This document shows, piece by piece, positions 13,455 through 30,708 of a stretch of DNA of 64,000 bases. The translations under genes were made by a program, and so were the position numbers. The notes under the pieces were generated by a model that saw only the letters and a program-made list of their open reading frames with translations, made no database searches and was not told the origin of the DNA. Each line of letters starts with the position of its first letter. Within the stretch, counting starts at the first letter, position 1. Origin of the DNA: an uncultured Bdellovibrionales bacterium (GTDB lineage: Bacteria > Patescibacteriota > Minisyncoccia > Moranbacterales > UBA1568); the NCBI GenBank assembly GCA_964543815.1, contig CAZIZG010000006.1, positions 3,656-67,655 on the forward strand. The letters are read 5' to 3'.

Positions 13455-13471
13455 TAAAAAATAAGAAAGAA

Positions 13472-13819
13472 TTAGTTCCTACCTATATATTCTACAATGT
13501 TTTCTACTACAGACGCAAAGAACTGCCGATTCCCCGGAAAAAGTGGCTTTACCGTGAAAAATACTACGTCGTAAGGTTTTTTTAAGATTGCCTGATCCAA
13601 AGAAATTAGACGCCCCATAAGCAGACGACGAACAGCGTTGCGACCAACAGCAGTTCTAAGATGCTTTTTTCCAAAAGAAAAGCCTATTCGAAGGTGACTA
13701 AGGTTATTTTTCACTAAACGGCAGCCAATTGGACCAAAAAAAAGGGGCCTTCCTTGACGAAATACCCTTTCAAAATCAGCTTTTTTCCTTAAACGAAAGC
13801 TCTTCTTAAACATATTCAA
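13472..13819 (-). CDS. rnpA: Ribonuclease P protein component
   Basis: 115 aa basic protein, RLRKKADFERVFRQGR motif, directly downstream of rpmH. Confidence 0.85.
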   Translation of the reverse strand: MNMFKKSFRLRKKADFERVFRQGRPLFFGPIGCRLVKNNLSHLRIGFSFGKKHLRTAVGRNAVRRLLMGRLISLDQAILKKPYDVVFFTVKPLFPGNRQFFASVVENIVEYIGRN

Positions 13820-13846
13820 GGAAATATCCAGGTTAAAATCTGGAAT

Positions 13847-13987
13847 CTAGGCTGTAGTAAGCCTTTTTCTTCCCTGGCGACGTCGGCGAGTAATCACTGC
13901 CTGCCCACCTTTGGTATTCATGCGCTTTAAAAAGCCATGTCGGCGCGATCTTTTTCGGCTCTTTGGTTGGTATGTTTTCTTTGACAT
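13847..13987 (-). CDS. rpmH: 50S ribosomal protein L34 (absent from ORF track, below the 60-aa cutoff)
   Basis: Manual translation of the minus strand gives [46 protein letters not shown], the canonical L34 sequence. Confidence 0.85.
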
Positions 13988-14161
13988 ACGCAATGGATAA
14001 AATTAGTCTTACGAAATGTTTGTCCAGTTTACCAGAAATTGGGAATTAGTCAACAGGGATGCCGCTCTATATGCAAAACACACAAAAAGTCCCTTATCCA
14101 CCGAATATCCACCATTTTATGCTAATTTAGACGTCGCCCCAACAAAAGACCCGTGCTATAA
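13988..14161. promoter_or_regulatory. rpmH/dnaA divergent intergenic region with DnaA-box-like 9-mers and the dnaA promoter
   Basis: TTATCCACC (~14092), ATATCCACC (~14106), TTATCCATT (revcomp at ~13994), TGTTGATAA (= TTATCAACA revcomp, ~14172). -10 TATAAT at ~14156. Confidence 0.6.
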
Positions 14162-15598
14162 TTGCCTTCACTGTTGATAACTTTCCCTACTATGACAAAT
14201 GAGGAGCTTTGGAAAGCTGTTTTGGGACAAATTGAGCTTTCGATTTCTAAAGCGAATTTTGTAACCTGGTTTAAGAATACTAGTATTATTCAAAATGAGA
14301 ATAGTATTGTCACTATTAGTGTACCTAATGGATTTGCGAAGGAATGGCTTGAAAATAAGTATAATCACTATATCCTAAAAGCATTAAGGGGCTTTAATCC
14401 TGACGTACGCGAAATTCGCTGTACGCTTTCTCCTACAAAAATCACCGGAGTCCCCGATCCAATTAGAAATATTGATGCCATCAAAGGACCGGATACTCAA
14501 GCCGGATTTGTTCGAAAAAAGATTATCGAAAAACCCTCTTTTAGCACTACACCTCATGCTGCTCCCGTCTTTCACGAAACAAATCTCAACAGTCGCTATA
14601 CTTTCGAAAATTTCATTGTTGCCGAAAACAACGAATTAGCTCGAGCTGCCTGTTATGCCGTCTCACAAAACCTTGGGATGGCTTATAATCCACTTTTTAT
14701 CTATGGTGGAGTAGGCCTCGGTAAAACACACCTCCTCCAATCCATCGGTAATGAAGTTATACAAAATAATCCAGAAAAACGAATTAAGTACATTACTTCT
14801 GAGCGTTTTACTACTGAATTAGTGGACGCTATAAAAAATCAAAAAATAGACAAATTTAAAGAGTATTATCAGCAGATGGACCTTCTTATTATTGATGATG
14901 TTCAGTTTCTTTCAGGTAGAGAGAAAACTCAAAATGAATTTTTTCATATTTTTAATGCCCTTTATCAAATCAATAAGCAAATTGTCATATCAAGTGACCG
15001 TCCACCAAAGGCTATTCCAACCCTTGAAGATCGCCTCCGTTCGCGGTTCGAGGGAGGTATGATTACCGATATTAGTCGCCCGACCCTTGAAACACGTATA
15101 GCCATTCTTGAGTCAAAGCTTCAGGAAAAAAATTTTTCCCTTGATCAAGCCTCAATTCGTTTTATTGCTGAAAATGCCTCACAAAATATCCGTGAACTCG
15201 AAGGAGCGCTTAATAGAGTGATTGCTTATTCTGAATTTCACAAAATTTCACCATCTCTTGAGAATACTCAAAAAATCCTATTTGAACTCATTGAAAACAA
15301 CAAAAAAACACTCCAAGCAGATGATGTTTTTCGTATCGTAACAGAATTTTATAACGTTCTTCGGGAAGATCTTATCAAAAAGGGCCGCAAGAAAGAGGTT
15401 TCTCATCCTCGCCAAGTTATGATGTATCTCCTTCGTCAAGAACTTTCCCTCCCTTTCTCAACCATTGGAGAACTCCTTGGCGGTAGAGACCATACCACTG
15501 TCCTTCATGCGTTTGAAAAAATAAATTCTAAAAAAGAAACCACCATTCGGCTAAAAGAAGAAATTGAAACCCTCAAAGAGCGTCTTTATTACTCATAA
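14162..15598 (+). CDS. dnaA: Chromosomal replication initiator DnaA
   Basis: 478 aa. AAA+ Walker A GGVGLGKTHLL, box VII, C-terminal HTH domain (DHTTVLHA). Confidence 0.95.
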   Translation: MPSLLITFPTMTNEELWKAVLGQIELSISKANFVTWFKNTSIIQNENSIVTISVPNGFAKEWLENKYNHYILKALRGFNPDVREIRCTLSPTKITGVPDPIRNIDAIKGPDTQAGFVRKKIIEKPSFSTTPHAAPVFHETNLNSRYTFENFIVAENNELARAACYAVSQNLGMAYNPLFIYGGVGLGKTHLLQSIGNEVIQNNPEKRIKYITSERFTTELVDAIKNQKIDKFKEYYQQMDLLIIDDVQFLSGREKTQNEFFHIFNALYQINKQIVISSDRPPKAIPTLEDRLRSRFEGGMITDISRPTLETRIAILESKLQEKNFSLDQASIRFIAENASQNIRELEGALNRVIAYSEFHKISPSLENTQKILFELIENNKKTLQADDVFRIVTEFYNVLREDLIKKGRKKEVSHPRQVMMYLLRQELSLPFSTIGELLGGRDHTTVLHAFEKINSKKETTIRLKEEIETLKERLYYS

Positions 15599-15842: not shown

Positions 15843-16991
15843 ATGAAGATTACTTGCACTCAGGAAAATCTCTCAAGAGCCTTAAGTTCCCTTGAAAGGG
15901 TTGTTGGAAAACAAGCAACTCTTCCTATACTAAGTAATTTTCTTTTGGAGACAGAAAAGGGGAGATTAAAAATATCAGCAACAAACTTAGAAATTGGGGT
16001 AATTGTTTCTATTGGGGCAAAGATTGAAAAAGATGGAAAAATAGCAGTTCCAGCAAAAATCCTCAGTAATTTTATTTATAATCTTCCTACAGGTGACATT
16101 ATTGAGTTGGAGGTGATTGATCAACACTTAAGGGTTATTAGTACTAGTTATCAGATTCGAATAAAAGCCCTTGATGGAAAGGATTTTCCTATTATTCCTC
16201 AATTCAAAAAGGAATATCAGTATCTTTTACCAGCGCAACAGGTAAAAGAAGCTCTCTCTCGCCTCTTATTTTGTGTAAGTTTAAATGAAGCTCGATTGGA
16301 ATTAACAGGGGCTTGTGTCTCAATTTCTGCTAATCTCATGAAAATTGCTACTACAGACAGTTTTCGGCTAGCAGAAGAGGTATTAGTGCTTGGGAATCAA
16401 GAAATGGTTCCTGGTCAAAATATTGATGAAATTCAATCGATTATTATACCGAATGGTGTATTACAAGAATTGGTGCGAATTATTCGACCTGAGAGCATTG
16501 AACTGAAAATGGCCCTTGATGAGAACCAGCTTTTTTTTGAGGTTGATGGTGTAGAGGTAATTTCTCGTGTTATTAATGGAAAATACCCTGATTATCAACA
16601 GATTGTTCCAAAGGAATTCTCTTTAGAAGTTATTTTTGAAAAAAGCTTGTTTTTGAGAGCACTTAAAATAGCAGGATCGCTTTCATCATATACTTCTGGA
16701 GAAATAGCGCTGGTGTTTAACACACAAGAAAAGAGTTGTACTTTTCTTTCAAAATCTCAAGAAATTGGTGAGAATAAAACGGTCCTCCCTGTAAAATATG
16801 TACAGGGTGAACAAGTGCTAACGATTCTTTTTAATCCCCGATATATTTTAGAGGGGATTAATGCTCTTCAAGGGGAGAAAATACTCTTTTGTGCAAACTC
16901 TGGAGCAACTCCGGCTGCTCTGCGGATGGTTGATGATGAGGAAAAGAGTATTGATACATACCTCTATTTGATGATGCCTATCCGGAAGTAG
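15843..16991 (+). CDS. dnaN: DNA polymerase III beta sliding clamp
   Basis: 382 aa, three-domain clamp pattern, position after dnaA. Confidence 0.9.
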   Translation: MKITCTQENLSRALSSLERVVGKQATLPILSNFLLETEKGRLKISATNLEIGVIVSIGAKIEKDGKIAVPAKILSNFIYNLPTGDIIELEVIDQHLRVISTSYQIRIKALDGKDFPIIPQFKKEYQYLLPAQQVKEALSRLLFCVSLNEARLELTGACVSISANLMKIATTDSFRLAEEVLVLGNQEMVPGQNIDEIQSIIIPNGVLQELVRIIRPESIELKMALDENQLFFEVDGVEVISRVINGKYPDYQQIVPKEFSLEVIFEKSLFLRALKIAGSLSSYTSGEIALVFNTQEKSCTFLSKSQEIGENKTVLPVKYVQGEQVLTILFNPRYILEGINALQGEKILFCANSGATPAALRMVDDEEKSIDTYLYLMMPIRK

Positions 16992-19930: not shown

Positions 19931-20881
19931 CTAGAGAGCAGCTCTTTTTTCCAGTGAGTCGATAAAGTTTTTACAAAACATTCTTCGATTTTCTCCTGTT
20001 ATTGCTCCCTTAAATCCAATTTGATCGTTAATTTCAAAGATATACGGAGTTCCATCCGAATCTATGCCAAAATCTATGGAGTAAAATGGGGATGAGTACA
20101 TTGAATCGATAAGGGGGTGAACTTGACTGACGATGTTTTGGAGTGCCAATGGGGCGGCTGTATAGGGAAATTCAATGCTTAATCCGCCCTGACTAACATT
20201 CGCCCGGAGCTCACCTGGCTTTGGGGATCTTGCCTGGAGGAGAATGGGCGCGCCATTAATAATAATGACGCGAAGATCGTGATGGCTAGGAATGATGTTA
20301 GGCACTCCGCCGCTCGTGTCGATAAATTTTTGAAGAATAAATTTTTTCCCTGGAATCACGAGGTCTGGCAGTAAATTTTTGGCTTCAGTAATGATAACAC
20401 CCTTTCCGCCAAAGCTATCCACGGGTTTGAAAACGACCATTTCTTTTGGCTGAAATAACGAGAGCGATGTGGTGAAGTCTTGTCGTGAAGCGATAGGAAA
20501 TGTTTTGGGCATGTAACGCTTGAGAAGCGCATAGGTCTGATATTTGTTGTTGGCCAACTTTTTAAAAGCAGAAGAATTAAGGGTTTTGGCATCAATATCA
20601 GGGGTTGGAAAGTCTTTCCGAGGACTTCGATCAAAAATGGCATTAAAAATAATTTTTTCCCGGTGAAGCACAAATTCTTCGCCTGTAAAGAAGAGGACGT
20701 TTTCAAATTCCATCCCGCCATGATGTAGGGTGGGCTTCACGCCTAAATACATATCGAGCCCTCTTGATCTTCCCTCGCGAAAGAGGGACCAGTAGATTTC
20801 CCGGCGATCCGGTAGATGGGCGTATGGGTCGGCAGCTACTTCTTTTTTGGTGAAATAGATGAGGATTTTCTTACGTGGCAT
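19931..20881 (-). CDS. ATP-grasp family amidoligase (paralog 3)
   Basis: 316 aa. Central ATP-grasp fold signatures (VVFKPVDSFGGKGV, IFEINDQIGF). 46-nt overlap with the upstream paralog. Confidence 0.6.
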   Translation of the reverse strand: MPRKKILIYFTKKEVAADPYAHLPDRREIYWSLFREGRSRGLDMYLGVKPTLHHGGMEFENVLFFTGEEFVLHREKIIFNAIFDRSPRKDFPTPDIDAKTLNSSAFKKLANNKYQTYALLKRYMPKTFPIASRQDFTTSLSLFQPKEMVVFKPVDSFGGKGVIITEAKNLLPDLVIPGKKFILQKFIDTSGGVPNIIPSHHDLRVIIINGAPILLQARSPKPGELRANVSQGGLSIEFPYTAAPLALQNIVSQVHPLIDSMYSSPFYSIDFGIDSDGTPYIFEINDQIGFKGAITGENRRMFCKNFIDSLEKRAAL

Positions 20882-21774
20882 AGGTAATTGAAGAGAGAGA
20901 CTATTTCAGTGGATTGTGGGTTCTCTGGAGTAAATCCTGGAGAGCGGTTGACCTCGAAGAGATACATTTTTTTGTTTTTTGAAGAAACAACGATGTCGAC
21001 TCCCGCGACTTCAATATGTAAAACTTTGGCCGCTTTAAGCGCGAGTGTTTTGAGCGGCAAGGCAATTTTTTTGGGATCAGAATATACTTCTGTTCCGCCG
21101 AGACTGGCGTTATTTCTAAAATCTTCAGTGTTCTGCCGGGTTCGCTCCTCGAGAGCGCCAACGACGGTGCCGGTGATAAAGATACGAAAATCAGATTGAT
21201 TGGGAATAAATTCTTGCAAGATGAGCTTTTCGCGATCACCGTGATCGAGAATGGCATAGAGCTCCTCACGAGTTCGTACTAGAAAGACTCCCTTACCCTG
21301 ACGGGAGAGTATTTTTTTGGCCACGATGGGGAGGCTGAGAAACTCTTCAGCCCGGATAAGTTTTTCTTTGTTGTATGATGGAGAAAAATATGTTTTTGGA
21401 ACAGGGAGTCCACTTTCGGCAAGAACGAACATTTGTGAGAGCTTTCCATTGATTGATCCAAAGGCGTGATGGGTATCTACGAAAGGAATGTTTCTTTTCT
21501 GAAGGTAGCGAGCGATAAGGGTAGCGATGGGTTGATACTTTCCCGCTCGTTTGATGTAGACGCTGTCAAAGTCTGTCAATGACTTTTTTTCACAAAAGAT
21601 GCGAGTATGGTCTTTATCAATAAAAAATTCCATGGACTGAAAATTTCCCAGTTCATAAGAGAACGAATGTTCCCCCATCATTTCAAGAAGGGGATTGATA
21701 CTTTTGAGATCAGCGACCATCTTTTTTGTTGGACGATCTGTAAGAATCAGCATGGAATTATTTATTGACATCAA
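20836..21774 (-). CDS. RimK-like ATP-grasp ligase (paralog 2)
   Basis: 312 aa. RimK-type motifs (PIVAKKILSRQGKGVFLV, LFEVNRSPGF). 17-nt overlap with the upstream gene. Confidence 0.7.
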   Translation of the reverse strand: MMSINNSMLILTDRPTKKMVADLKSINPLLEMMGEHSFSYELGNFQSMEFFIDKDHTRIFCEKKSLTDFDSVYIKRAGKYQPIATLIARYLQKRNIPFVDTHHAFGSINGKLSQMFVLAESGLPVPKTYFSPSYNKEKLIRAEEFLSLPIVAKKILSRQGKGVFLVRTREELYAILDHGDREKLILQEFIPNQSDFRIFITGTVVGALEERTRQNTEDFRNNASLGGTEVYSDPKKIALPLKTLALKAAKVLHIEVAGVDIVVSSKNKKMYLFEVNRSPGFTPENPQSTEIVSLFNYLCHVRKSSSISPKKK

Positions 21775-23152
21775 TAAGAAACTTGCTTAAGTTTTTTCGG
21801 CCAATAATGACTGGATATTTTAGATGGGAACGGTCAATAACCGATACCTTGGCAGGAAACGAAAGAGTATCAAGTGTTAAATCCACACGGAGAATTGGTC
21901 GATAGCTGGTGCCATGAGATGATTTTACCGGAACGGCATCAGTGAGGTTTGGTATCTCGAGGAGTAGTGCCTCTCGTTCCATTTTCGTCATTTCATTGAG
22001 GACATCTCGCCCAGCAATTTTATCCTCAAACATCTGAAGAATGGAGCCAAAACCGAGCTCTTGAGCAAGTTTGGTATCGATAGCTGTAGAGTCTGCCCCA
22101 GTATCGATTTTTGCTTCGACTTCAATTTCTTTGCCATTGATACCAATAATCTTTACTTTTTCGATGCTGCCGATGACGCGCTTTCCGGAGAGCTCCTCAA
22201 TTTCTTCTTCGATTTCGCCACCAAAGAGATTGCGACCGACGCGGATACCGCGCTCAGTTGTTTTGATTTTCAAACCGGAAACGCGTTTGAGTCGTCCTTT
22301 GAGGCCGGCCAGATTAGCGAGCTGGATAGAAAGTCCGGGACGGGCATTGAGTTCGAGAATGACCGGACCACGATCTCGATCAATGGCAATGTCGGCGCCG
22401 AGAAAACCAAGGCCAGAAAGCCGCTGGGCCTCTACGGACATGCGGAGGATTTCTTTCCAATACGGAATTTTGATACCGGAGAGGACGAGACGGGTGCTGG
22501 GCACATACTCAATCAACTGGCCTTTACCGATAATGGCTGTTGTTGTGGTGCCGGTAGCGAGGTCGATACCAACGCCGATGGCCCCTTGCTGGAGGTTGGC
22601 CTTACCGTCGGAGGCCTTGGTAGGCAAACGAAGCATGGCCATGACAGGAACGTGATTGAAAACAATAACCCGGATATCAGGGATGCCCTTGAAGCTGTAC
22701 GGCTTGAAGAGCTTCAGAAGCTTGAGTCGTTCTTCAAAAAAGGCAATATCAGGAGTATTAGCCAGGGAGAACGATCCGTCGATGATGTTTCGGATATGCG
22801 ACTTGAGGTCATTGATGGTGATAACGGAACCATCAGCTTTGACCCAAGCATCCGGACGTCCTTTTTTGCGAGCATAGACGACAACGATACCTTCGCCACC
22901 AAAACCACGATTGGGCTTGAGAGCAAAGCTGTCGGGCAAAGTGTTCCAATCGAAATGATCAAGTTCTTCATGGGTCTTGATTTTGGCAATGAGTGCTGAT
23001 ATCCCGAGATTATTTTTTTTCAAGATACGTTTACAGAGGAGCTTGCTATCAGCAATCTCCATGCTCCGCTTGCGGTTATTCGGGCGGATGTACTCCAAAT
23101 TTCTGGCATTCATACCAAGGAGCAACCCACTTTTTTTCAAGAAATCAAACAT
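21758..23152 (-). CDS. ATP-grasp (alpha-L-glutamate-ligase-like / ATPgrasp_ST-style) fused to C-terminal retropepsin-like (DUF785/Zn_protease-like) domain
   Basis: N-terminus LGMNARNLEYIRPNNRK...; ATP-grasp core (FALKPNRGFGGEGIVVV, ILELNARPGL); C-terminal ~130 aa with IDTGADSTAID aspartyl-protease-like motif. Confidence 0.6.
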   Translation of the reverse strand: MFDFLKKSGLLLGMNARNLEYIRPNNRKRSMEIADSKLLCKRILKKNNLGISALIAKIKTHEELDHFDWNTLPDSFALKPNRGFGGEGIVVVYARKKGRPDAWVKADGSVITINDLKSHIRNIIDGSFSLANTPDIAFFEERLKLLKLFKPYSFKGIPDIRVIVFNHVPVMAMLRLPTKASDGKANLQQGAIGVGIDLATGTTTTAIIGKGQLIEYVPSTRLVLSGIKIPYWKEILRMSVEAQRLSGLGFLGADIAIDRDRGPVILELNARPGLSIQLANLAGLKGRLKRVSGLKIKTTERGIRVGRNLFGGEIEEEIEELSGKRVIGSIEKVKIIGINGKEIEVEAKIDTGADSTAIDTKLAQELGFGSILQMFEDKIAGRDVLNEMTKMEREALLLEIPNLTDAVPVKSSHGTSYRPILRVDLTLDTLSFPAKVSVIDRSHLKYPVIIGRKNLSKFLIDVNK

Positions 23153-23187
23153 AGGAGACGCTACTCAATGAAAATAATCGATATCGA

Positions 23188-23847
23188 TTATTGAAGATGG
23201 CGGATAATTTTTCGAAAGCGAAGGAGCTCGGTGAGACGAAGGCCCGTCCACTTACCAAGGGAGAAATTGATAACAAAAGTAAAAAGAATAATCCATGGAT
23301 AGTGGAGCACGAGGGCAATGAGACTGTTCCAACTGACGAGATAGTAACCAACCACAGAAATGACCAGTGTTTCGATAGCTAAGATGAGGGCAATACGACT
23401 TCCCTTTTCAATTTGAGTGGCAATAAATTTTTCCGCGAGCGTAATCATGATGAGGAGCGGAAAAATGGAGACGGAGGCAAGTCCAGTGCGACGATACATG
23501 CCACCGATGAGGAGTACTCCTAAGATGGCAAGCGAGACGATGGAAACCGTCATGGCGACGCGTGGCAAATAGAGGAGGCGAAATTTTTTCATGAGGATGC
23601 GCGAGAGCGTTCCTACCACGATGACACTCACGAAAATGGCGATGCCGTATTTGATACCATTGGGATCAAAAGCAAGGAGAGCAAAGGTGATAATAGAAGG
23701 AGTGTAGATACCAAAGGCCTTGACGCCTACCACTTGCCGAAAAAAAGCAACCATGGTTACCACAATAGGGAGCATGAGAAGGAGGGCGACCGTCGGAAGG
23801 GGTACGCCTTGTTCAACGATGAAGTTTATAAAAGGATGGTACTGCAT
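23188..23847 (-). CDS. 7-TM membrane protein (7TM module of transglutaminase-associated type)
   Basis: 219 aa, seven predicted TM helices. Directly upstream of and co-oriented with the ATP-grasp cassette. Confidence 0.45.
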   Translation of the reverse strand: MQYHPFINFIVEQGVPLPTVALLLMLPIVVTMVAFFRQVVGVKAFGIYTPSIITFALLAFDPNGIKYGIAIFVSVIVVGTLSRILMKKFRLLYLPRVAMTVSIVSLAILGVLLIGGMYRRTGLASVSIFPLLIMITLAEKFIATQIEKGSRIALILAIETLVISVVGYYLVSWNSLIALVLHYPWIILFTFVINFSLGKWTGLRLTELLRFRKIIRHLQ

Positions 23848-27341: not shown

Positions 27342-27577
27342 TCGCTTTACAAACAAGGAAGCCTATATTTGATAGGACTGCTTCACATGTAGACAATTGG
27401 GGATTTCTATCTTTTATCCTCAATCACGGGAACTGTTGCCAAGATCCGGGTAGGGTGGTTTCGGCTGCGCTATACCTCGACGCTTTTCCTTTCCTCTCGC
27501 TCCTATGCCTGAGGATTTGTCTACAGCTGAAGCAGGTGACTGAAAGACCCTGATTTTGTCAGGGTCTTTCATTTTTT
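27342..27577 (+). ncRNA. Candidate structured small RNA (~235 nt) of unassigned family, ending in an intrinsic terminator
   Basis: Promoter upstream. Long-range helix 27379-27396 / 27517-27534 (16/18 bp). Local GC enrichment. Terminator hairpin gaaagaccctga-ttttg-tcagggtctttc plus U-run at 27542-27577. No plausible CDS (the 75-aa ORF lacks an RBS and is low-complexity). Confidence 0.45.
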
Positions 27578-27584
27578 ATAAAAA

Positions 27585-30500
27585 TTAGATTTCGGTGACT
27601 CGCTCAATTTCTTCAAAAGTTGTTTTGCCCTCGAGAGCCGCCAGCACACCATCCTGAAGGATAGTGAGCATACCTTTTTTAACGGCCGCGGCTTCAATTT
27701 CGTGAGCGAGGGATCCAGAAGCAATAAGCTCTTTAATCTCCTGATCAACCGTGAGAGCCTCAGAGAGGATTATCTGGCCATTGTAGCCGGTATTGCTGCA
27801 GGTTGGGCATCCCTTACCCCTGTGGAGTTTGAGTGTTTGAGGAATTTTAACCCCGGCTGCTTTAGGTATGGTAGCGAGAACCCTATCAAGAGTGGCTCTT
27901 TCCTGCTCGTTTGGTTCGGTTTCCGTGCTGCAGTCCGGACAGAGACGACGCACTAGACGTTGCGCAATAAAGAGGTTACTGGCATCAGCGAGGTCATCAC
28001 CGGAGACGCCCATTTTGATCAGGCGCTGTATGGTACCGGCGGCGGAGTTAGTGTGAAGGGTTGAGAGAACGAGGTGACCGGTAGCAGCGGCCTGAACGGC
28101 GATTTGAGCTGTTTCATCGTCGCGAATTTCACCAATCATGAGAATATCGGGGTTCTGGCGAAGAAGGGATCGGAGCGCCGTTGAAAAGGTATACCCCTCT
28201 TCTTCGTTAACCTGAGTTTGGAGTAAGCCCGCCATTTGATATTCAATCGGGTCTTCTACGGTAATAATTTTTATTTCCGGTCGATTAACGCGAGCCAGGA
28301 TACTATAGAGGGTAGTAGTTTTCCCGGATCCAGTTGGACCAGTATTAAGAATCATCCCGTTTGGTTTTTGGATAGCTTCAAGTATTCGGGTGAGGTTTTG
28401 TTCGCGAATATTAAGGGTATCAAGATCGAGTTTGGTGGCAGATTGATTGAGGAGACGAAGTACAACTGTTTCGCCAAAACCTCCCAAGATTATAGAGAGA
28501 CGAATATCGATGTCCTTTTCTGTTGTTCCGGGGAGAGGGCTTTCAAAATGAATAGCAAAACGTCCATCAGTAATACCGGCCCGCTCGCCGCTCTTCAGGC
28601 CAGCGAGTAATTTAATTTCACTTAAGAATCCTGGGTATTCATTAATAGGAAAGCGAGCGGCTGTTTTCAGGATACCATCGAGACGAAAGCGCACCTCGTA
28701 ACTATCATTGTTTGGTTCAATGTGAATATCGCCAGCCTTAAGGAGGGTGGCGGCAGCAAAAAGAAGTGGCAAGCGGATTTTGGAGTCGCTTTTCAAAGCG
28801 TAGGCACCAAAGCCATCCAAAGAGTCGAGATTTTTTTTGGTTTCGTCAAAGACAGTATTTGAAATAAAGGCACCTCGAGAAAGCTCATTGGGCATCAGTT
28901 CAGCATAGATATTTTGGAGGAGGTCGCCCTGATCAGTGACACGGAGTACTTCATCTAGGGTAGTAATGCCTCGGAGAGCTTTCAGGATGCCATCTTGTGT
29001 CATGGTGACCATACCACTCTCAAGGGCAGCTCGCAGGATATCTTGCTCGGTTCCCATTTCATTTACTATTTTTTCAATTTCGGGAGTCATTGAGAAAACC
29101 TCATAGATACCAACGCGACCTTTGTAGCCTGAAAAGTTACAGGCGACACAGCCGACCGCTTTCCAGAGCACCTCTACTTTGTTAGGAACGGAAATTTTCG
29201 CTTTAGGCGAAACAATGGTAATGAATTTAATGATTGAATCAAGGGTCTCTTTGGCGGGGGTATAGGAGACTTTGCACTGTGGGCAAAGCGTACGAACAAG
29301 CCGCTGGGCGATAAGAATTTTGATAGCCGAGGTGATGAGCGATGGCCGTACCCCGAGTTCCAGGAGGCGCGGTATGGAGGCGGGAGCACTGTTAGAGTGA
29401 AGGGTAGAAAGAACAAGGTGGCCAGTAAGGGCGGCATTGATAGCGATATCAGCCGTTTCATCGTCGCGAATTTCCCCCACGAGTATAACGTCAGGATCCT
29501 GACGTACCACGGCTCGGAGGGCAGTAGCAAAGGTGTACTTTTTATCTTTGGACACTTCAGTTTGGACAATGCCGGGAAGCGAATATTCAATTGGGTCTTC
29601 CACAGTGATAATTTTTGTGCCAGGGCGGTTGATATGGTGAAGGAGCGTATAAAGAGTAGTGGTTTTCCCGGACCCAGTTGGACCGGTATTAAGGATAAGG
29701 CCATTGGGTTTTTCGATAGCCGCCATCACCATTTCCGAAACAAGTCCCTGGAGGCCAAGGCTATCGATGTCGTTGGAGATGCTGTCACCCGAGAGGAGAC
29801 GCATGTTGATACTCTCAGCATACTTTCCCGGGATAATATTAACCCGAATATCGACTCGCTTTCCGTCTATTTCAACAAAAAAGTGGCCATCCTGGGCTTC
29901 TTTGCGAATGTTTAGACGCATTTTCCCAAGCATTTTGATACGGGAAAGCATGAGAGCGTACACTTCTACAGGGAGATTGCCAATGTCCTGAAGGATACCA
30001 TCAATACGGTAGCGCAGTCTCACTTGGTGTTCTTCTGGTTCGAGATGAATGTCGCTGGTATCAAGTTTTTTTGCTCCGGTCAAGATAACCTCCATGGCCT
30101 TGGTGGTATTGGAAGATTGTCCCTTGTGAAGACTAATGAGTTCTTTAAAGTTAGCCTCGAATTTTTCAAGGTCAGTTCCGCTAAGTGAAACGCGAACTAA
30201 ATCAAGATTATCAAGGAGGGTGCGTTTGTGATTGTATTGTTCCCAGGCTTTCTCCAGGGAGGCCTCAGAAACGACATAAAGTTCACTCTTGGCACTGTGT
30301 TCTTCTGTGAACTTGTTTATAAATGCAGTAACAGACTCGTTCTCTGGATTCGTGGTAGCAAAAAGATAGAGAGTATCTTTTTTATGAAAGATAGTGAGAC
30401 GAAGTCTTTCGGAGTCCTCGCGTGTCATAAGGAAGACTGTCTCGGCATCTACTGGAAACACATTTAAATCAATGTAGGGAAGACTAAATTTTTGACCGAG

Positions 30501-30611
30501 CATCGCCGCTTCACTTTCTTTGGATTGGGCCTGCAGCTTTCCCAGAATCTCCTCTACTTGTTCTTCTTTGTCGGTTAATTTGGCAGAATCTTGACGAACA
30601 ACTTGAACCAT
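27585..30611 (-). CDS. Tandem-duplicated type II secretion / type IV pilus assembly ATPase (two complete GspE/PilB modules in one 1008-aa polypeptide)
   Basis: Two copies each of Walker A (LNTGPTGSGKTTTLY), Asp box/Walker B (ILVGEIRD / ILMIGEIRD), His box (LSTLH) and tetracysteine motifs (CPQC...CVAC; CPDC...CPTC). Both halves are preceded by N1/N2-like domains. Confidence 0.85.
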   Translation of the reverse strand: MVQVVRQDSAKLTDKEEQVEEILGKLQAQSKESEAAMLGQKFSLPYIDLNVFPVDAETVFLMTREDSERLRLTIFHKKDTLYLFATTNPENESVTAFINKFTEEHSAKSELYVVSEASLEKAWEQYNHKRTLLDNLDLVRVSLSGTDLEKFEANFKELISLHKGQSSNTTKAMEVILTGAKKLDTSDIHLEPEEHQVRLRYRIDGILQDIGNLPVEVYALMLSRIKMLGKMRLNIRKEAQDGHFFVEIDGKRVDIRVNIIPGKYAESINMRLLSGDSISNDIDSLGLQGLVSEMVMAAIEKPNGLILNTGPTGSGKTTTLYTLLHHINRPGTKIITVEDPIEYSLPGIVQTEVSKDKKYTFATALRAVVRQDPDVILVGEIRDDETADIAINAALTGHLVLSTLHSNSAPASIPRLLELGVRPSLITSAIKILIAQRLVRTLCPQCKVSYTPAKETLDSIIKFITIVSPKAKISVPNKVEVLWKAVGCVACNFSGYKGRVGIYEVFSMTPEIEKIVNEMGTEQDILRAALESGMVTMTQDGILKALRGITTLDEVLRVTDQGDLLQNIYAELMPNELSRGAFISNTVFDETKKNLDSLDGFGAYALKSDSKIRLPLLFAAATLLKAGDIHIEPNNDSYEVRFRLDGILKTAARFPINEYPGFLSEIKLLAGLKSGERAGITDGRFAIHFESPLPGTTEKDIDIRLSIILGGFGETVVLRLLNQSATKLDLDTLNIREQNLTRILEAIQKPNGMILNTGPTGSGKTTTLYSILARVNRPEIKIITVEDPIEYQMAGLLQTQVNEEEGYTFSTALRSLLRQNPDILMIGEIRDDETAQIAVQAAATGHLVLSTLHTNSAAGTIQRLIKMGVSGDDLADASNLFIAQRLVRRLCPDCSTETEPNEQERATLDRVLATIPKAAGVKIPQTLKLHRGKGCPTCSNTGYNGQIILSEALTVDQEIKELIASGSLAHEIEAAAVKKGMLTILQDGVLAALEGKTTFEEIERVTEI

Positions 30612-30676: not shown

Positions 30677-30708
30677 AAAAAAGTCGCCCTGTTGCGGCGA
30701 CTTTTTTA
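30677..30708 (-). terminator. Intrinsic terminator downstream of the DHH gene
   Basis: aaaaaaGTCGCCctgttGCGGCGACtttttt, a symmetric hairpin with flanking A/T runs. Confidence 0.65.

Follow-up and report, generated by a model that had tools for sequence, protein, structure and literature searches.

A conserved two-module PilB/GspE-family ATPase in Parcubacteria-group Patescibacteria

Two complete PilB/GspE-type motor modules are encoded in a single 1008-aa chain by a gene located within a 64-kb stretch of DNA (64,000 nt; hereafter, the window) from contig CAZIZG010000006.1 (assembly GCA_964543815.1) of an uncultured bacterium of the Patescibacteria, for which the name Candidate Phyla Radiation (CPR) is used as well. 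The same architecture is shared by more than 150 full-length orthologs (39-75% identity) from Parcubacteria-group Patescibacteria, and the alignment of this family shows that both modules are under purifying selection. With moderate confidence, we propose that the fused protein is a working PilB-type extension motor, in which three chains would form a six-module ring acting in trans on a PilC platform.

Domain organization of the fused ATPase

The gene and the segments of its product are located in the window as follows.

27585..30611, minus strand: fused two-module PilB/GspE-family ATPase gene, a complete open reading frame (ORF) of 1008 aa with an ATG start and a TAA stop (27585-27587)
30225..30488, minus strand: N1 domain (N1D; MshEN/GSPII_E N-terminal, residues 42-129), a marginal match to Pfam PF05157 (26 bits vs. 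a cutoff of 23.1)
30105..30224, minus strand: connector 1 (residues 130-169), helical, joining N1D to the first N2 domain (N2D-1), assigned by AlphaFold2 (AF2) and hhalign
28932..30104, minus strand: module 1 (residues 170-560), comprising N2D-1 (RLRYRIDG) and the first C-terminal domain (CTD-1), assigned by motifs, Pfam and structure matches
29661..29684, minus strand: Walker A of module 1 (GPTGSGKT, residues 310-317), from a motif scan
28782..28931, minus strand: inter-module linker (residues 561-610), assigned by alignment, AF2 and hhalign
27588..28781, minus strand: module 2 (residues 611-1008), comprising N2D-2 (VRFRLDG) and CTD-2, assigned by motifs, Pfam and structure matches
28317..28340, minus strand: Walker A of module 2 (GPTGSGKT, residues 758-765), from a motif scan

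The resulting layout is N1D(MshEN)-[connector-N2D-CTD]x2. Pfam T2SSE (PF00437; 736 bits) and the top-scoring NCBIfam models, PilB (TIGR02538) and GspE (TIGR02533), each match the protein in two stretches, and the two halves (residues 167-560 and 608-1007) are 41% identical by BLASTP (E 1e-115). Each half carries its own motif set: Walker A at 310, a VEDPIEY Asp box, GEIRD at 379 and the His box TGHLVLSTLH at 396-405 in module 1, and Walker A at 758, VEDPIEY, GEIRD at 827 and TGHLVLSTLH at 844-853 in module 2. The same holds for the tetracysteine motifs (Cys 443/446/488/491 and Cys 891/894/935/938) and for the RxRxDG motif of N2D, whose arginines (R200/R202 and R641/R643) are invariant in the family alignment. 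These observations bear out the original prediction, made from the letters of the window, of two complete and diverged motor modules in one chain; the strings quoted in its support are all present (LNTGPTGSGKTTTLY twice, ILVGEIRD in one half vs. ILMIGEIRD in the other, and LSTLH twice). Its suggestion that an N-terminal-type domain precedes each motif set holds for N2D, which is duplicated, but not for N1D/MshEN, which occurs once per chain, i.e. once per two modules. The junction, which had been expected near 29100-29200, lies in fact in the linker at nt 28782-28931.

The two connecting segments proved to be related to each other. Connector 1 is modeled by AF2 as a pair of helices (132-142 and 146-162, pLDDT 62-69). 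The linker opens with an amphipathic helix, in which Q561, L565, Y569, L572, M573 and L577 are conserved at a level of at least 90% in the family alignment; disorder in the AF2 model is confined to residues ∼573-578 (pLDDT <50), and residues 581-623 form an ordered strand-helix-helix leading into N2D-2. The profile-profile comparison by hhalign identified residues 549-641 as homologous to residues 116-200 (98.7% probability), and since this match aligns the linker region with that of connector 1, the repeat unit is defined as connector, N2D and CTD together. No transmembrane segment was found in the fused protein, and a regular-expression search revealed no AIRNLIRE-like PilT motif in it. The MshEN domain of MshE binds cyclic di-GMP (c-di-GMP) through a 24-residue motif, RLGxx(L/V/I)(L/V/I)xxG(L/V/I)(L/V/I)..., to which the fused protein shows no match even with a relaxed expression.

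The AF2 monomer model, built from a 113-sequence alignment, has a mean pLDDT of 84 and a predicted TM-score (pTM) of 0.58, which makes the individual domains confident and the mutual arrangement of the modules not. A Foldseek comparison of this model with PilB/PilF chains yielded alignments of ∼390-400 columns with target TM-scores up to 0.92 (5tsh_C, 5oiu_B), the output leaving open which of the two modules was aligned. The query TM-score did not exceed 0.36, i.e. every PDB match spans one module at most, and none of the PDB relatives found is a solved structure with two such modules in one chain. By sequence, module 1 matches GmPilB (5tsg/6olj) and module 2 matches TtPilF (5it5/5oiu), the matches of the two halves taken together including PilB, GspE and PilF. 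The score of the entire protein against the PilT model TIGR01420 (340 bits) is the sum of two partial module matches. Overall, on all criteria of sequence and fold, both modules belong to the PilB/GspE family.

Conservation and phylogenetic distribution of the fused form

An identical 1008-aa protein is predicted from 12 contigs, which belong to several assemblies (ENA, Logan, NCBI). A word-indexed search covered 5.8 billion proteins, and its best 120 matches, which were examined here, comprise 117 two-module proteins of ∼1000-1045 aa (52-75% identity), two shorter two-module proteins and a 1460-aa protein (P0005, see below); where a source is named, these matches come from metagenome-assembled genomes (MAGs) of Moranbacteria/Moraniibacteriota, Minisyncoccota or "Patescibacteria group". 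When 1.84 billion representatives clustered at 50% identity were searched exhaustively with HMMER, ∼13 of them proved to be full-length fused proteins (978-1018 aa, 39-56% identity), below which the list drops to single-module PilB/GspE. Among the GTDB species representatives, ∼29 genomes have the fused gene, including Moranbacteria, Paceibacterota, Parcubacteria GW2011_GWC1_45_14, Falkowbacteria and others (some of the record titles evidently carry a wrong label). Apparent fused forms in Verrucomicrobia (L028, L038, L039, L049 and L072) were discarded as they are really separate genes for a 571-aa PilB and a 365-aa PilT. The search for representatives also returned P0202 (1174 aa), a PilB-type ATPase of another unusual architecture, in which MshEN domains and an inserted Ser/Thr kinase (Pkinase, 355-602) precede a single T2SSE module.

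Both motif sets are retained in each of the 153 fused proteins aligned. The Walker A lysine, Asp box, Walker B, His box, N2D arginines and eight cysteines are kept at ∼90-100% in both modules across this set, and in alignment A1 all eight cysteines are invariant. Walker A of module 1 is identical in 150 of 153 proteins, the remaining three having conservative variants, while in module 2 the P-loop lysine is kept in 153/153 with variants such as GPTGSGKS, GPTSSGKT and others around it. Both modules thus appear to be catalytically active, judging by their motifs, and the possibility that one of them is a pseudo-ATPase was ruled out on the same ground. Conservation is slightly higher in module 1 than in module 2 (136 of 152 comparisons), and the positions conserved in one module only are divided between them as 14 vs. 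2, many of those in module 1 falling in the zinc-loop subdomain (Y450, I467, P469, A471, L482, G501). Only five positions are conserved within each module and yet different between the two.

It could be argued that the fusion is an artifact, either of neighboring pilB genes merged by an assembly or sequencing error or of a decaying pseudogene with one dead module, as tandem separate secretion-ATPase genes do exist (e.g. PilB and PilT pairs in Verrucomicrobia). We consider the likelihood of this explanation to be practically negligible. The same 1008-aa ORF recurs on 12 contigs from several assemblies, and throughout the fused family, down to members with as little as 39% identity, the reading frame is continuous and the linker helix conserved; the full-length architecture is found in more than 120 clusters at the 90% identity level and in ∼13 at the 50% level. 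The claim that the halves are diverged paralogs rather than an exact repeat agrees with the single 359-nt stretch, 71% identical, which is all that the modules share at the DNA level and which means that an assembler would have met nothing close to an exact repeat that it could collapse. The catalytic motifs are intact in both modules, and the conservation of the junction across the family argues against a collapsed gene pair.

Evolution of the modules

In a neighbor-joining tree of 142 modules the second (C) modules formed a clan in 133 of 200 bootstraps, and the clan of first (N) modules was unsupported. In a larger tree of 277 modules the distances between N and C, N and single, and C and single modules were all ∼1 substitution per site, with deep nodes saturated and unresolved. 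At a shorter range the two positions are distinguishable: core members of the family are clearly collinear, module 1 being nearer to the reference module 1 and module 2 to the reference module 2 in 37 of 46 proteins.

The number of modules at this locus is not entirely fixed. The 1460-aa protein P0005, a single sequence from one 77-kb contig (locus L083, 8001-12383, Joint Genome Institute sample 3300022698), has the layout N1D-[connector-N2D-CTD]x3 with two homologous linkers, and its gene is located beside DHH, TsaE and RuvB. Its middle module is of the module 2 type over the first ∼250 alignment columns and of the module 1 type over the last ∼150. This hybrid is exactly what a single unequal crossover (module 2 x module 1) in the conserved catalytic core of a double form yields, and we conclude that the three-module form arose in this way; module number at the fused locus thus changes by intragenic recombination, two modules being the overwhelmingly retained state.

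In two other proteins the modules are closer to each other than usual (75% inter-module identity in P0125 and 58% in P0126), although these modules are only ∼45% identical to other family members. Their interpretation as independent recent fusions was dropped, as the genes (L085, 3226-6213 and L084, 8001-10985, respectively) occupy the same TsaE-PolA/RuvB slot as the gene in the window; module turnover or replacement, or gene conversion, within one orthologous locus is more parsimonious.

Genomic context

Three additional elements of the window are relevant for the expression and possible partners of the fused gene.

30683..30698, minus strand: intrinsic terminator (GTCGCC-loop-GGCGAC with T6 after it on this strand), closing the DHH gene ∼70 nt before the fused ATG
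27541..27571, no strand assigned: perfect 13-bp palindromic hairpin (TGAAAGACCCTGA / TCAGGGTCTTTCA) between the fused gene and ruvB, starting 13 nt past the TAA
58696..61907, plus strand: canonical single-module pilB (58696-60393), pilC (60402-61445) and an N-methyl pilin-like ORF (61452-61907), given as context outside the fused gene

The fused gene belongs to a block of genes RuvC-YebC-bPH-RuvB-[fused]-DHH, all on the minus strand, followed by TsaE-PolA on the plus strand. Of 29 related loci, 15 have the fused gene, RuvB and bPH in this order, at protein identities as low as ∼46%. In the core clade the conserved upstream neighbor is the DHH phosphoesterase (NrnA-like, a weak match); nucleotide phosphoesterases recur beside the fused gene. 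The neighbors in a divergent clade (L018-L023, L031) are a translin-like protein, two phosphoesterases, aminoacyl-tRNA synthetases and UvrA. In L021 (6943-12850), as well as in L018 and L023, a tight same-strand run encodes a 328-aa protein (weak DUF7544 match), the fused ATPase, the translin-like protein, a metallophosphoesterase and an inositol-monophosphatase-family protein.

The terminator upstream of the fused ATG implies that the fused gene has its own promoter. The downstream hairpin is preceded by an A-tract, and a T-tract accompanies it on the plus strand only, where no gene ends; it is likely to mark a transcript end (or a bidirectional terminator) or to serve as an RNA stabilizer. 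No tRNA or Rfam match was detected in the 340-bp gap before ruvB, which has a promoter-like site of its own. Because of the upstream terminator, the downstream hairpin and this separate site, the fused gene looks monocistronic here.

None of the ∼32 fused loci has pilC adjacent to the fused gene, as opposed to the single-module homologs, for which pilC is directly downstream in ∼34 loci. In the window, the separate conventional pilB that had been pointed out in a pilus operon is indeed present there together with pilC (T2SSF) and the pilin-like ORF; the N and C halves of the fused protein are 38% and 45% identical, respectively, to its product. The only PilC in the window is encoded by this operon, and it is a candidate platform for use in trans by the fused ATPase. 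The canonical PilB itself has lost the first CxxC pair and kept only CPGC at residue 492, which means that it is probably devoid of the tetracysteine zinc site retained in both fused modules; it scores 546 bits with TIGR02538, below the cutoff of 676. Directly upstream of canonical pilB (55051-58288, plus strand) are genes for two sensor proteins, a CHASE4-HAMP-PAS protein (513 aa) and a PAS-PAS-HisKA-HATPase histidine kinase (568 aa), possible regulators of the pilus operon. No PilT gene is present in the window. On the other hand, one genome with the fused gene (L012) encodes a bona fide PilT (TIGR01420, 425 bits vs. a cutoff of 319) and PilC ∼5 kb off on the other strand, so that the fused protein is no mere substitute for PilT.

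The window is chromosomal and takes in the origin region. The segment 12717-16991 contains yidC (minus strand), a low-GC gap of ∼700 bp (13455-14161, GC ∼0.37), dnaA (14162-15598) and dnaN (15843-16991). The GC skew flips sign at this region, ∼11-14 kb away from the fused gene, whose strand is opposite to the positive skew. Another cluster (19931-23847, minus strand) encodes three ATP-grasp proteins (RimK-like, one of them fused to a putative zinc/aspartyl protease domain) and a 7TM_transglut membrane protein; it may represent a peptide-ligase or modification system, and synteny of its ATP-grasp_ST and 7TM genes with RuvC is seen in several loci of Moranbacteria (L003, L004, L006 and L010).

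Proposed motor and alternative interpretations

In the proposed motor, each chain would contribute a single N1D followed by two complete connector-N2D-CTD modules, and three chains would close into one ring with modules 1 and 2 alternating, making a covalently linked pseudo-hexamer that has no more than three N1 domains. Chains and PilC subunits would be paired 1:1, the two cytoplasmic domains of a PilC subunit would each take one N2D, and the ring would power pilin polymerization on a PilC encoded elsewhere (here, in the operon at 58.7-61.9 kb). This would give the type IV pilus machinery a second extension motor, transcribed separately from the first. We infer the six-module ring from the following considerations. 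PilB-family hexamers are composed of six rigid packing units, N2D(n) plus CTD(n+1), with flexible linkers between them (PMC6858323). The module copy numbers of two and three both divide six and are thus compatible with a ring (2x3 = 3x2 = 6). The PulE6:PulF3 model features a platform trimer with alternating Cyto1 and Cyto2 domains, each engaging one N2D, so that a single subunit of the platform contacts a pair of neighboring ATPase subunits (PMC10790770). Finally, a 2:2 ratio of platform to ATPase domains, as a 1:1 pairing of a two-module chain with PilC would give, is seen in a single chain of the unrelated protein P0142 (see below).

A more elaborate version of this proposal, which we regard as doubtful, is a natural hetero-pseudo-hexamer, in which distinct active modules alternate 1:1 on a trimeric PilC with a built-in three-fold asymmetry and a division of labor, for example, Cyto1 vs. 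Cyto2 engagement or driving vs. gating.

Several observations weigh against the proposed ring and its pairing with PilC. All PilB structures to date have C2 (CCOCCO) rather than C3 symmetry (PMC6858323), which means that a trimer of dimers would have to pass chemically different modules through the same states. A specialization of the two N2D domains for Cyto1 and Cyto2 of PilC was not supported, as the module-specific positions showed no N2D enrichment (p = 0.66). The inter-module geometry is not confidently predicted by the AF2 monomer. Finally, neither pilC, nor pilM nor a pilin gene is adjacent in any of the ∼32 fused loci, and the link to a pilus is therefore one of homology only.

The two modules of a chain could also belong to different rings, with six chains stacking a hexamer of module 1 atop a hexamer of module 2 and only one of these rings touching the platform. 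Stacked rings are the arrangement adopted by two ATPase domains per chain in KaiC and in type II AAA+ proteins (ClpB, p97, NSF); the linker of ∼50 residues would be long enough for it, and the three-module form would fit three stacked rings as well, as in EccC. Furthermore, the excess of module-specific conserved positions in module 1 (14 vs. 2) indicates that the modules are under different constraints. We nevertheless consider a stacked double ring a real but less likely alternative. In the PilT/VirB11 family N2D packs rigidly on the CTD of a neighbor, and contact with the platform is made through the face of N2D. PilC would be out of reach for a second ring; a full N2D is kept in both modules, and no stacked PilB-type ring was found among the solved relatives.

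The genomic context suggests a different kind of alternative, in which the ATPase has been recruited to a DNA process, such as uptake or translocation feeding recombination, and hence resides in a repair-gene neighborhood. RuvB is the next gene in 15 of the 29 fused loci and in the P0126 locus, with PolA, TsaE, DHH, YebC and RuvC nearby, the divergent clade has the translin-like protein, phosphoesterases and UvrA as neighbors, and the gene never adjoins pilC. The TM7x pilus locus carries recAX (PMC12206443), and CPR pili have been proposed to function in DNA uptake (PMC6744442). However, the gene looks monocistronic here, flanked by an upstream terminator and a downstream hairpin, and a conserved housekeeping gene order in reduced genomes does not have to reflect a common function. 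The fused protein has no DNA-binding domain, every domain in it being PilB-like, and uptake via a competence pilus would still require a pilus-type extension motor. A role outside of pili is, in our assessment, rather improbable. Even less probable is a retraction or bifunctional motor, which would replace or supplement PilT or in which one module would extend and the other retract. The absence of a PilT gene from the window would be consistent with it, as would the distance between the modules, which is as large as that from unrelated PilBs, and bifunctional motors such as CpaF are known. On the other hand, both modules are PilB-type with the tetracysteine zinc motif, N1D is present and AIRNLIRE is absent, and the genome of L012 keeps its own PilT, all of which makes retraction unlikely; the module-specific fixed differences, moreover, number only five.

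Significance

PilB, GspE and PilT motors are thought to be homohexamers of identical subunits cycling in turn through open and closed states, and the questions open in the field include the coordination of these subunits and the match of a six-fold motor to a platform dimer or trimer. A linked two-module PilB and its three-module derivative fix subunit order and stoichiometry, and the main value of the fused protein would be that of a natural linked-subunit PilB for probing both subunit coordination and motor:platform stoichiometry. For example, a Walker B mutation in one module would yield a ring with exactly three dead sites in alternation, for which an ordinary PilB needs engineered covalent constructs. 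The two- and three-module copy numbers, along with the 2:2 chain of P0142 (see below), fit the proposed 6:3 motor:platform model. Should the hetero-pseudo-hexamer be true, it would be the first secretion-ATPase motor with a fixed subunit order, it would lend the debated 6:3 ATPase:platform stoichiometry genomic evidence of the Rosetta-stone kind, and its three-fold asymmetry would replace the C2 cycle inferred for homohexameric PilBs.

CPR pili are considered central to the episymbiotic lifestyle and to DNA uptake, and the fused family represents an uncharacterized, conserved part of the pilus toolkit of Parcubacteria-group CPR. The only labels given to these proteins in databases are "GspE/PulE family protein" and "PilB". 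The full-text literature searched, including a 2024 review on PilB and papers on CPR pili (subscription journals being partly covered), gave no account of PilB in tandem or fused form, which leaves standing the premise that this architecture is not an already characterized family.

Comparison with known systems

The closest relatives of the fused ATPase are PilB, GspE and PilF (GmPilB, 5TSG/5TSH/6OLJ; TtPilF, 5IT5/5OIU; Vibrio GspE, 4KSR), with which it shares the module fold (41-44% identity), catalytic motifs, N2D arginines, tetracysteine zinc site and an N-terminal N1/MshEN-type domain. It differs from them by the number of modules in a chain, two (or three, in P0005) as compared to one in the solved or described members found, by one N1D per two modules, by the lack of an operon with pilC, and presumably by being a trimer where they form a hexamer. 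PilT and PilU (∼345-370 aa) are more distant, lacking N1D and the tetracysteine motif and having AIRNLIRE in their C-terminal part, whereas the fused protein has N1D and zinc motifs.

A parallel is provided by TfpB of Acinetobacter baylyi, a second extension motor of the PilB type that coexists with canonical PilB and would have to use the same machinery (PMC8213720). Unlike TfpB, which is single-module, the fused protein has two modules; it scores 693.9 bits with NF053534, a sum over both modules and still below the cutoff of 850, and is therefore not a member of that family.

Chains with several RecA/ASCE-type modules are known elsewhere, e.g. in KaiC, type II AAA+ proteins (ClpB, p97, NSF), EccC/EssC and dynein, as well as in engineered linked ClpX hexamers. 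As in the fused ATPase, linkage there fixes stoichiometry and allows asymmetric specialization. However, these proteins belong to unrelated subfamilies and mostly form stacked rings rather than placing their modules side by side in one ring; none of them is known to belong to the secretion ATPases of the PilT/VirB11 family.

Tandem PilB-type modules in one chain are also found in P0142 (1047 aa), a singleton cluster from a non-Patescibacterial MAG (locus L086, 6001-9144, GCA_964384625.1) whose neighbors encode a sulfatase, an extracytoplasmic function (ECF) sigma factor and MoxR. In P0142 two soluble T2SSF domains, corresponding to the cytoplasmic domains of PilC/GspF, are followed by two T2SSE modules in a 2:2 ratio. 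It differs from the fused protein in its independent origin, with modules 36-37% identical to those in the window and a platform-like N-terminus in place of N1D. The first of its modules has lost the Walker A lysine (GPTGSGTT) and is thus probably non-catalytic.

The platform protein PilC/GspF itself, with an internal tandem duplication of T2SSF, offers a similar solution: two homologous domains per chain, such that a trimer presents a ring of six domains in alternation. Its unfused counterpart is the pair TadB and TadC (PMC10790770). PilC/GspF is a membrane platform of a different fold and role and the fused protein a cytoplasmic ATPase, and it is a 1:1 pairing between the two that the proposed motor would entail.

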